From positions 48,050,001 through 48,114,000 of the forward strand of contig OX597832.1 in the NCBI GenBank assembly GCA_951406725.2: a DNA stretch of 64,000 bases, in the 5' to 3' direction. This document shows, piece by piece, positions 213 to 27,519 of this stretch. Numbering within the stretch: position 1 is the first letter of the stretch; every line of letters begins with the position of its first letter. This DNA comes from Octopus vulgaris (taxonomy: Eukaryota). The position numbers and the translations under genes are program-made. A model generated the notes under the pieces. That model saw only the letters and a list, made by a program, of their open reading frames with translations, was not told where the DNA came from and made no database searches.

Positions 213-241
213 TCATCGCATCTGTTCCACTGAGAACATCT
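213..241 (-). CDS. Candidate short terminal (or poison) exon adding QMFSVEQMR* after exon 5a or 5b
   Basis: Strong acceptor (tttgac, long U tract, ttttacctgtag|AG) with about 80 nt free of AG upstream. Phase-1 join C+AG gives Q, then ATG TTC TCA GTG GAA CAG ATG CGA TGA. No homology support. Confidence 0.4.
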
Positions 242-584: not shown

Positions 585-699
585 GGGTGGAGGAAGGTTG
601 TGCTGCAGAGGCGGATGGTTTAGAAGTGTCACGATATGTGCCGTTAATGATAGCTAGCTCCATGAGTTGTCGTTTCTTTAAGTCATCCTCTCCTTCGGG
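585..699 (-). CDS. QKI: quaking/how exon 5b (QUA2, second tandem copy): PEGEDDLKKRQLMELAIINGTYRDTSKPSASAAQPSST
   Basis: Acceptor cctttttcag|CCC and donor ACCC|gtaagt; 115 nt, phase 0 to 1. Lies within ORF 490..738. Confidence 0.93.
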
Positions 700-761
700 C
701 TGAAAAAGGATCACAAGGAACACAGTTGTAAAGAACATGACTTAATAGAGTATGTACACAG

Positions 762-767
762 CATGCA
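762..767 (-). promoter_or_regulatory. UGCAUG Rbfox-type motif in the 85-nt intron between 5a and 5b
   Basis: Plus strand catgca equals minus strand TGCATG, starting 18 nt into the intron after the 5a donor. Confidence 0.45.
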
Positions 768-784
768 CTATTTAGCAAACTTAC

Positions 785-881
785 GATGGATGGATGAACC
801 AGTTTTGAAATCCCGGTAAGTTCCATTTAAGATAGCAAGCTCCATTAATTGCATTTTCTTGAGTTCATCCTCCCCCTCAGG
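785..881 (-). CDS. QKI: quaking/how exon 5a (QUA2, first tandem copy): [32 protein letters not shown]
   Basis: Read by hand; absent from the ORF track. Acceptor ttttctttcag|CCT and donor CATC|gtaagt; 97 nt, phase 0 to 1, no stop codons. QUA2 motif LKKxQLMELAIxNGTYRD. Confidence 0.9.
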
Positions 882-910: not shown

Positions 911-935
911 GATTAGAAGCGAAGAACAATTAGTA
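911..935 (-). promoter_or_regulatory. Bipartite QKI response element overlapping the predicted exon 5a branch point (UACUAAU-N13-UAAU)
   Basis: Minus strand reads TACTAAT tgttcttcgcttc TAATC, about 30-54 nt upstream of the 5a acceptor. Matches the QRE consensus NACUAAY-N1-20-UAAY. Confidence 0.6.
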
Positions 936-4091: not shown

Positions 4092-6529
4092 TATGTCTTT
4101 TTTCCCATGCTAGCATGAGTTGGACAGTTTGACAAGAACAGACAAGCCAGAGGGCACAAGCAGGTTCTATGACTGTTTTGGCACAGTTTCTGCAGCTGGA
4201 CGCCCTTCCTAATGCCAACCACTTAAGAGTGTAATAGTAATCTGAAATCAGTAACTGCGCACACACATACAGAAGAAGGAAGGAAGAGAAAGAAATCACT
4301 GCTTTTTAGAGAAAAAAAAGCGCAGGAGATATGAATAGCAGAACCACAGCAAGTTTGCGATACTATTGATAGGGATGAGTGGGGAGTTATCATGCAGTTT
4401 TCTCTTAAAAATTTACAAGTGTGATGGCAGAAGGGGAAGTGTTTAAGTGTGTAGGGAATGGGGGGTGAAAGGGGGTAAAAAAAACAAGATAAACATGCAA
4501 TAGAGAAACTATAGAGAAATTTAAGTAATATATATTCAAATATGAATTTATTTACAATTTTTTTTTTGTGTATTTTAAAAAAAAAGCATGCAGTTTGCTG
4601 CCAGGAATTTTTTTTTTTTTTTTTTTAATTTTAATAGAAACTTTACATATATTTATATATACTTTTTTTTTTTTTTGCAATTTCTTTCACTGAACGAACA
4701 AGTTGCTTGTTATACTAACATCTACATAAGACACACACACACACGTTTTGAGTTTAAACGACAACATGAAAGCGAGTGTGGAGGAGGGGGGGAAGGGGGA
4801 GACAAAAAAAAGGTGTTTTGCAAATATCACATTTCAGGAAAAGAAAAAAAAAACAAAAAAAACAAAACTGAAGCAAATGGAAAAAAAATATAGGAAAATA
4901 AAAATTACAAAAAATTACTATAAGTACCAAAGTGCAAATATTTAAAAAAAAAAATTTTTTTTTTTTTTTTTTTGGTTAAAAGCAACTGGCAACCTGTGAA
5001 ATTGGAATTGAAGAGCCACAGAAGACAACAGCTAAGAAACATTATCACCAATATATAATATATATATAAATATATAGCAAATAGAATGTGAAGGAAAAAT
5101 AAAAAAAAATAAAGTGGAAATAATAATATAAAAATATAAACAAAGAAAGCTTTACACCTATGTTTGGGAGATAGTCATGCAAGAACCTTCCAGAATATAT
5201 ATATATATAATACACACATCTAGAATATATATATATATATATATAATATACATATATATATATATATATATAATATACATATATATACATATGTATATGT
5301 ACATATGTGTGTGAGTATATATGTGTATGACACACAATATAGATTTACTTACATGTTTGGAATCAAGTTGACAGTCCTTCCTCGAAGCATGTAATAAAAA
5401 TTGTTGCAGGATTCTTAAACAATAGTTTTAGAAATCTAATACAAGCAAACAAATGACTAATCTCTATTATTTTTGCTTTGTAGGAAAAAGAAAATAATGT
5501 TTTGTTTTTTTTTTTGCATTTTTACCCATTTCCTTTAAAAAACAAAAATCTCTTAAGATGTGGCTCCAATCACCACAACATTCAACAGAACAGGAAGAAT
5601 AAAATAATGAAAATAAAAAATGTGGAAAACACCATTATTACACATACCAATTATTATTACTTTTCTATAGGTTTTGGCCGGTTTCAGTCATTGGACTGCA
5701 GCCATGCTGAGGACATTGCTTTCATCATGTATTTAGTCATATATATATATATATATAGAGAGAGAGATCTTTCCCAGCACTCCTAGTACTTATTTTACTG
5801 AATACCAGACTAGAATACAGGACATTAAGAAACGAATACACACATTATGAACTACTGTACCATTTCTATGGTGCCAAATCCCAGTCATGGAGTACAGGTT
5901 AGCTTGAAATTATAGAAGGCACTTGCGCAAAACGTCACACATTAGGACTGAATTGTGTAGTTGCAAAGTGGACCTGTTAATCACACAACCATCCTGTGTA
6001 CAGCTAAGAATTTCCACAAGTAAAACCCATTCACAGACGGAACAGATTTCTGCATGAAGGGTTTTCTATGGAATGACCTGTAGGTCATCAAGTCAGTTCT
6101 CAGTACATGACTGCATTTTGGCTATTGAAAAACTTCCTATGAAACATAGTTTGACTTACATTAGCAGGAGAGGATTGAGTCCTTGGGTTCATAAGGTCAG
6201 GGCTTAGTCAGGTTCCCATGGAGTATAAGTGACAGATTATAACACTCCTCCACCACTGAATGGGATGCAAGTATATAACAGGATTAACTGCCCAACTAAT
6301 GGTGGAACCTATTCACTGGACTGGAGCAACATGAAGTGAAGGTTTTTTTTTTGTTTTTTTGCTCAAGAACACAATGTAGTGCCCAATACAGAAATTCAAA
6401 CTGATCTTAAGAAGACTGGAGCATAAATGAAATACACAACTACACCAAACACCTGCACTCTCATGTTAAGTACTAAGATCAAATCTTCTAGAGGTCTTGG
6501 AGAAGACCTCTTGATACATAAACCCTAGG

Positions 6530-8427: not shown

Positions 8428-8571
8428 TGCTGGCACCAACAGTCGTTTCACTTCTTCGACAGCCTTCTGTAACTTGATTTCTGCTCTGTTACGTGTGTCT
8501 TCTACAGTGATGAGTACATGCAACTCTTCGTTCAAGTGTTCCCAGTTTGGCTTTCCCCGATTCAACTCCTC
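8428..8571 (-). CDS. QKI: quaking/how exon 4 (KH C-terminal half): [48 protein letters not shown]
   Basis: Acceptor atgcag|GAG and donor GCA|gtaagt; 144 nt, phase 0 to 0. [19 protein letters not shown] motif. Confidence 0.97.
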
Positions 8572-27385: not shown

Positions 27386-27519
27386 ATCAGGGTGTTCTTT
27401 GACAGGTACATAAAGTTTCTGTGATAATGTGACTGCTTGACCATCTGATGCAGGTAAGGGTAAAGATTCCCTGCTGTTTCCTTTGTGATGGAACAATGAG
27501 GATCGTATCCGTGCGATCT
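27386..27519 (-). CDS. QKI: quaking/how-family STAR protein, exon 2 (end of QUA1, linker, start of KH): (E)IARIRSSLFHHKGNSRESLPLPASDGQAVTLSQKLYVPVKEHPD
   Basis: Acceptor ttctgcag|AG and donor GAT|gtaagt; 134 nt, phase 1 to 0. The KLYVPVKEHPD motif is typical of QKI/HOW. Confidence 0.93.

Follow-up and report, generated by a model that had tools for sequence, protein, structure and literature searches.

The quaking gene of Octopus vulgaris carries two homologous copies of the exon for the QUA2 RNA-binding helix, 5a (881-785) and 5b (699-585), placed in tandem on the minus strand of the window (the whole stretch of 64,000 nucleotides analysed here). Throughout, the residues at two sites of this helix are written as site 1/site 2, so that 5a is of the M/L type and 5b of the R/I type. 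The copies, likely mutually exclusive, would derive from one duplication in a lophotrochozoan ancestor, after which 5b would have retained the ancestral R/I and 5a would have diverged, its Met likely being convergent with that of vertebrate QKI; this reading we consider probable. The preliminary description of this locus had proposed that the exon pair predates the protostome-deuterostome split, with reciprocal loss in vertebrates and ecdysozoans, and had named convergence at two sites as the alternative; it is the alternative that is now favoured, exon a being itself unstable at both sites.

The gene in the window is quaking, its exons 2-5 matching named Octopus quaking proteins at 100%. It encodes an N-terminal QUA1 dimerisation domain and a single maxi-KH domain followed by the QUA2 helix, both features of the Quaking/How/GLD-1 clade, and to judge from the sequence 5a and 5b keep the Qk-type QUA2 RNA-contact residues (Lys190, Gln193, Leu, Ala, Arg) and not those of the SF1 or Sam68 type. 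Quaking, How and GLD-1 are treated as members of one clade whose base is formed by single cnidarian proteins (PMC4316625, in the part available). The numbering 5a/5b used from the start was right, with exons 2-4 inside the window and exon 1 about 23 kb beyond it (Table 1), and the interval 628-881 first assigned to the pair corresponds to the conserved cores of the two exons. The main tail exons are found 3.4-10 kb past the left end of the window.

Table 1. Exons and other features of the octopus quaking locus (window positions unless a genome position is given)
Feature	Position	Strand	Remarks
Exon 1, with QUA1	G000:C19:48136897-48136998	same strand, upstream	outside the window; PF16544 above its cut-off
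Exon 2, QUA1-KH linker and KH start	27386..27519	(-)	
Exon 3, KH domain with GPRG loop	15806..15922	(-)	
Exon 4, KH domain end	8428..8571	(-)	closes in phase 0
Linker cassette, KH-QUA2	5353..5388	(-)	36-nt segment, cassette exon in named Octopus isoforms
Dual motif ACTAAT (934-929) and CTAAT (916-912)	912..934	(-)	52 and 35 nt upstream of the 5a acceptor
Exon 5a, QUA2 helix, M/L type	785..881	(-)	97 nt; short tail FKTGSSIH; used in named Octopus isoforms P0122-P0125
Intron between 5a and 5b	700..784	(-)	85 nt; no AG beyond intron position 44
Exon 5b, QUA2 helix, R/I type	585..699	(-)	115 nt; Ser/Thr/Pro-rich tail; used in 9 named Octopus isoforms (among the matches listed)
Alternative short terminal exon	213..241	(-)	QMFSVEQMR*, of named isoform P0015

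Some features of the locus lie apart from the exon pair. The KH-QUA2 linker cassette reads ASRKDCQLDSKH and is preceded in this genome by AT (...ACAT) where AG is expected, so that its acceptor is non-canonical, polymorphic or mis-modelled. In two named isoforms (P0122 and P0123) exon 4, which holds the KH end, is skipped and exon 3 is joined to 5a; the resulting proteins would be without a complete KH fold. The introns are filled by a repeated SINE-like element, present at 1310-1690 of the window and in many other places, with recurring peptide-like read-throughs. Of possible bearing on the introns of this gene (27386-64000 and beyond), PMC13652810, in its accessible part, reports that coleoid Quaking B has a conserved region within an intron and that deleting it in squid had long-range effects; an intron of squid Quaking B was edited there, and squid are now CRISPR-tractable at this gene. 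Neither "mutually exclusive" nor "isoform" occurs in the main text of that paper, as far as it was accessible.

Exons 5a and 5b are adjacent and homologous. Both run from phase 0 to phase 1 and are flanked by the same splice signals, CAG at the acceptor and GTAAGT at the donor. The minus strand at 699-585 translates as PEGEDDLKKRQLMELAIINGTYRDTSKPSASAAQPSST, and the 5b core given beside these coordinates is LKKRQLMELAIINGTYRD. Both exons match the QKI and GLD-1 structures, 5a reaching E=5e-9 against human QKI (4JVH), and a genome search with QUA2 returned these two copies and one SF1-like match, nothing else; the strength of the QKI match together with so few genome matches excludes chance. 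An HMM search of the window and of 60 kb downstream found no third QUA2 copy. The likeness of 5a to QKI was correctly claimed, M/L being the residues seen in 4JVH, a structure that also confirms the human residues given in the preliminary description. That of 5b to HOW is borne out by the R/I of the dipteran "held out wings" proteins P0110, P0111 and P0117; the fly residues given there agree with these 3 proteins and with 40/40 named arthropod proteins, the Drosophila protein itself lying outside the sample. The M/R site does adjoin an RNA-contacting Gln, as K190 and Q193 are given as RNA contacts in the portion of PMC5626755 at hand.

The two cores have 52/72 bases and 9/24 third codon positions in common, so few that the duplication must be old. 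The probability that one of the copies is a dead duplicate, or an artefact of the assembly, is negligible: both exons have intact splice sites and open frames, their amino-acid core is conserved though third positions are saturated, and both are found in named isoforms and in intron-less transcript-like contigs. As to the SF1-like QUA2 exon of the genome (L003, G000:C25:20197398-20197469), it reads LRRQQLRELALLNG and has Gln in place of the Met of human SF1, meaning that site 1 is variable in SF1 too.

Mutually exclusive use of the pair is judged from isoform models and contigs. All 13 Octopus isoform models among the matches listed carry one copy only (nine 5b, four 5a). Since both exons go from phase 0 to phase 1, the inclusion of both shifts the frame to a stop, located at the sixth codon inside 5b when 5a and 5b are joined directly; double inclusion led to a stop in 11/11 loci tested (octopus and 10 others), and the frame is also shifted when 5a and 5b are skipped together. 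RNA carrying both exons would be predicted to undergo nonsense-mediated decay. Intron-less transcript-like contigs with a and with b have their downstream sequence in common (P0126 and P0021, P0217 and P0232, P0242 and L072). Nine oyster, mussel and snail gene models (P0001, P0002, P0005-P0009, P0011, P0012) contain both exons plus extra linking residues, which may reflect leaky exclusivity, use of a second donor or model errors. On this material, 5a and 5b are likely spliced in a mutually exclusive manner. Both isoform types are already present as automatic annotations, and no report of a duplicated QUA2 exon was found in the open literature searched, which was covered mostly at listing level.

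The arrangement resembles that of the mutually exclusive exons 4a/4b of OGDH, which are likewise adjacent, homologous and separated by a short intron (PMC7969005, in the part available). Other tandem mutually exclusive exons are known from oyster AOX (PMC5589949) and from human catalogues (PMC9741552, PMC8373072), as far as the accessible parts of these sources go. In quaking, unlike these cases, the exons that are exchanged encode the RNA-binding helix of a splicing regulator, and the motif of this regulator equals the branch-point consensus.

The exon pair is widespread. Named proteins of both types come from Octopus, oysters, Mytilus, Mya, scallops, Littorina, Biomphalaria, Gigantopelta and the chiton Liolophura, and 17/80 metagenome loci (partly redundant) contain two copies with splice sites in the same phases. 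In all 17 the a copy with its short tail comes first and is followed by b, which has RDT and a long Ser/Thr tail; locus L078 presents exon 4, a, b and exon 6 in that order. The b tails of 8/17 resemble those of the bryozoan Watersipora, with which the a-type spliced protein P0242 also groups (SH-aLRT 97, in a quick tree from which QUA2 was left out). Further animals bearing a and b fall outside the mollusc clade (97) and not with Watersipora in the STAR-domain tree, which was a quick search only, and to label them annelids would be a guess; the annelid Dimorphilus has an M/I copy. A duplication confined to cephalopods was rejected, as the pair occurs far beyond them, in bivalves, gastropods, a chiton and bryozoan-like loci, and on this point the early suspicion of an old pair holds. 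Its presence in molluscs and bryozoan-like animals makes it older than the mollusc-bryozoan split, which is Cambrian or older.

Rotifer-like and arthropod-like loci have one QUA2 exon, lying between exons 4 and 6 in the arthropod-like L044, L076 and L077. Among apparent doublings that were discarded, the two QUA2 copies of Brachionus P0013 belong to two whole genes fused in one model and those of Acipenser P0121 are near-identical, neither case being an a/b pair, and the second regex match in L043 was spurious. In some lophotrochozoan-like loci (L037:1205-5332, L048, L051, L056, L058) exon 4 is followed directly by a b-type exon and a is absent, and related proteins (P0203, P0195, P0219, P0221) are of an M/M a-type; a and b may here be partitioned between paralogous genes.

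The residues at the two sites were tabulated from the named proteins among the matches listed (best 120 of 308, best 120 of 661, best 120 of 2527 and best 150 of 4331 in the searches), deuterostomes being represented by annotated isoforms and not by genomic DNA; the counts that follow refer to these listed matches. With 13 rows each, the b core varies in 2/25 columns and the a core in 8/25. Exon a can have M, K, R, Q or I at site 1 and L, I or M at site 2, with gastropods showing K/L, R/L or R/M, the chiton Q/L, bryozoan-like animals I/M and Dimorphilus M/I. In octopus and bivalves 5a agrees with the vertebrate core at both sites. In fact, the cores of 5a and vertebrate QKI (a STAR protein, PDB 4JVH) are identical but for one pre-helix residue and the tail, and the two genes share the QUA1-KH-QUA2 layout and the phase 0 to phase 1 borders of the QUA2 exon, as seen in genomic read-through peptides. 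The difference is that vertebrates have a single QUA2 version, M/L in 45/45 named proteins. Known QKI isoforms are told apart by the C-terminal tail and not by the RNA-binding helix. QKI-5, -6 and -7 are named in PMC9786888. Arthropod HOW shares R/I with the 5b core (40/40 named proteins) but has a single QUA2 exon in arthropod-like loci, and nematode GLD-1 (PDB 2MJH, 4JVY) is K/I, its Ile being common to 5b.

The R/I combination is not specific to HOW, as it is also found in starfish and crinoids, other echinoderms being R/M or K/L. Amphioxus is R/L in 20/20 proteins, the tunicate Styela K/I, hemichordates G/L in 8/8 and corals K/M in 14/14. Met at site 1 was thus seen in 0/50 named invertebrate-deuterostome proteins from 12 genera and in 0/14 coral proteins, and at this level of annotation neither Met nor both versions appear in any listed invertebrate deuterostome or cnidarian. 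One core version per genus is found in invertebrate deuterostomes, and likewise outside Spiralia. The five-residue tail of amphioxus, NNTKN, resembles the vertebrate ANIKS in length and in N-x-K, yet amphioxus has Arg at site 1. No named protein of a priapulid, xenacoelomorph, brachiopod or two-isoform annelid was among the matches listed. Met or Val at site 1 occurs also in human SF1, in the vertebrate-like paralog P0301, in the nematomorph Gordionus (an ecdysozoan, M/L in 3/3 listed proteins, P0267, P0405 and P0406) and in the dicyemid Dicyema (P0264, M/L); the last two, both M/L like vertebrates, are key taxa for dating the duplication. In the hemichordate proteins with Gly at site 1 (P0421, P0425, P0466, P0516-P0520) Arg replaces the near-invariant Asn of NGT, and in the urchin P0409 this Asn is replaced by Lys.

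A phylogeny of QUA2 exons, as advised in the preliminary description, places a copies with a copies and b copies with b copies across phyla, with 3 label changes each against about 11 after shuffling; neither a nor b forms one clade in this tree (52 rows, 28 columns, bootstrap not converged). Separate duplications in molluscs, bryozoans and worms would suit this last result, as they would the differences of exon a between groups (M/L, I/M, M/I) and an octopus a+b clade that is not rejected (p-AU 0.24). Such repeated origins are, however, very unlikely given the clustering of labels across phyla, the a-then-b order with the same tail types in 17/17 two-copy loci and the recurrence of CTAAY clusters in the a-b intron of bivalve-, bryozoan- and worm-like loci.

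Older origins were weighed against the single lophotrochozoan duplication by AU tests and parsimony. None of four groupings was rejected on the 28-column exon alignment (p of 0.50 for vertebrates+amphioxus, 0.11 for all deuterostomes, 0.22 for a+vertebrates and 0.24 for octopus a+b), the vertebrate+amphioxus clade fitting slightly better than the free tree. On fixed topologies the lophotrochozoan duplication takes 190 steps and the older scenarios 190, 189, 188 and 187, meaning that these save 0-3 of about 190 steps before counting the roughly 4-10 exon losses that they need by our own count. The deuterostome ancestor is reconstructed by parsimony with R at site 1 and Leu at site 2, and the ancestor of exon a as M/I, not M/L. 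A tree of 28 columns is too short to decide the age of the duplication or to formally reject an older origin.

A duplication before the protostome-deuterostome split, after which vertebrates kept a and ecdysozoans b, would explain why octopus and bivalve 5a are the same as the vertebrate core at both sites. It agrees with the free exon tree, in which vertebrates join two mollusc a copies, with the non-rejection of an a+vertebrate clade (p-AU 0.22) and with topologies of 190, 189 or 187 steps against 190. In that tree, however, the starred branch (100/88) holding vertebrates and the two mollusc copies also includes Gordionus, Seison and Holothuria, which points to long-branch effects, and the vertebrate+amphioxus clade fits slightly better. 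None of the 50 listed invertebrate-deuterostome proteins has Met, no genus shows two versions, and about 4 losses would be needed if all deuterostomes had kept a, with no substitution steps saved, or about 7-10 if vertebrates alone had done so (own counts). By the genetic code, a single base separates Met(ATG) from both Lys(AAG) and Arg(AGG), and Leu from Ile. An origin before the split thus appears rather improbable: what stands of the reciprocal-loss proposal is that the pair is old and extends beyond cephalopods, and what is left unsupported, with amphioxus, tunicate, hemichordates, echinoderms and corals lacking Met at site 1, is its pre-split age.

It could also be supposed that the duplication took place in the protostome ancestor, with Gordionus keeping a, arthropods and nematodes keeping b, and the vertebrate Met still convergent. 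Gordionus has M/L and GTFRD, like some a copies, and the corresponding topology is 2 steps shorter (188 vs 190). This history is nevertheless improbable, as it requires about 5 losses (own count), Gordionus is a long branch, Phe at the GTFRD site is also found in echinoderms and hemichordates, and rotifer-like and arthropod-like loci have a single exon. In their boldest form, these ideas would make the pair a relic of the bilaterian or protostome ancestor, with one half surviving as vertebrate QKI and the other as arthropod HOW, and the bilaterian version of this we judge rather improbable as well. A single duplication in a lophotrochozoan ancestor is the reading kept here, and within it convergence of the vertebrate Met at site 1 with exon a is favoured, not proven.

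The introns around the pair carry a possible clue to the control of exon choice. In the first 100 nt of 11 a-b introns CTAAY was counted 18 times, against a mean of 3.3 in dinucleotide shuffles (0/1000 as high), the independence of these counts being overstated by the relatedness of the 11 loci; elsewhere it was found 5 times upstream of a, 0 times downstream of b and 3 times upstream of 17 single exons. In 7/11 loci a CTAAY lies 26-56 nt from the 5a donor. These distances are close to the steric limit of about 50 nt between donor and branch point that is cited in the available part of PMC7969005. If the motifs are branch points, their closeness to the upstream donor in several loci would be a further likeness to OGDH-type exons. 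No CTAAY is present in the 85-nt a-b intron of octopus, nor in the a-b intron of one bivalve locus. Octopus has instead the dual motif upstream of 5a, a candidate double branch point and quaking response element; two CTAAY in one 60-nt bin occur in 2/1066 bins on the gene strand. The octopus a-b intron contains TGCATG at 762-767 (-), which we take to be an RBFOX-type motif; TGCATG is seen again near the exon pair in several loci, lying downstream of b in L016, L018, L061, L024 and L026.

A precedent exists in mammals, where QKI binding to dual ACUAAC branch sites represses the next exon, with competition between QKI and SF1, as described for RAI14 exon 11, two ACUAAY/CUAAY elements being located there 30-60 nt upstream of the alternative 3' splice site (PMC13004596, in the portion available). 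Dual elements like those of RAI14 are found upstream of 5a in octopus and upstream of 5b in L025, L031 and L032. The mammalian targets are regulated in trans, whereas what might be proposed here, by analogy, is autoregulation of quaking's own exon choice. The CTAAY clusters suggest a hypothesis in which, in many lineages, branch-point-like elements near the 5a donor would add steric exclusion and quaking itself would steer the choice between a and b through them; in octopus, the dual motif upstream of 5a may act in place of elements in the a-b intron. Stated in full, lophotrochozoan quaking would switch its own RNA-binding helix by means of an exon pair more than 500 million years old, self-controlled by occupation of paired ACUAAY branch sites, and in octopus 5a would have taken the place of 5b as the regulated exon, a scheme that we put forward as tentative and somewhat doubtful.

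Within STAR proteins, QUA2 is described as tuning how strongly and how specifically RNA is bound, and the RNA contacts named for it in GLD-1 are G308, T309, D310, K313, R314, L317, A321 and R328, with L320 at the KH interface (PMC4081071, accessible part). In our own alignment sites 1 and 2 correspond to K315 and I323 of GLD-1, which are absent from the RNA and interface contacts named in that part of the paper, and nothing relevant on Met192, Leu200 or Lys315 together with QUA2 was met in the portions of the literature searched. As the known RNA-contact residues are kept in both proteins, the 5a and 5b isoforms likely read the same YUAAY motif. Differences in affinity, packing or partners may arise from the helix position beside Q193, from the I/L site and from the tails; what differs most between the two isoforms is the post-helix tail, short in a and Ser/Thr/Pro-rich in b.

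In summary, the quaking exon pair is a case where two-residue "signatures" mislead about ancestry. Vertebrates and arthropods have one fixed QUA2 version each, whereas lophotrochozoans appear to keep two and to choose between them by splicing, and this natural pair, in one gene and one cell, offers a test of the role of QKI-like versus HOW-like residues.
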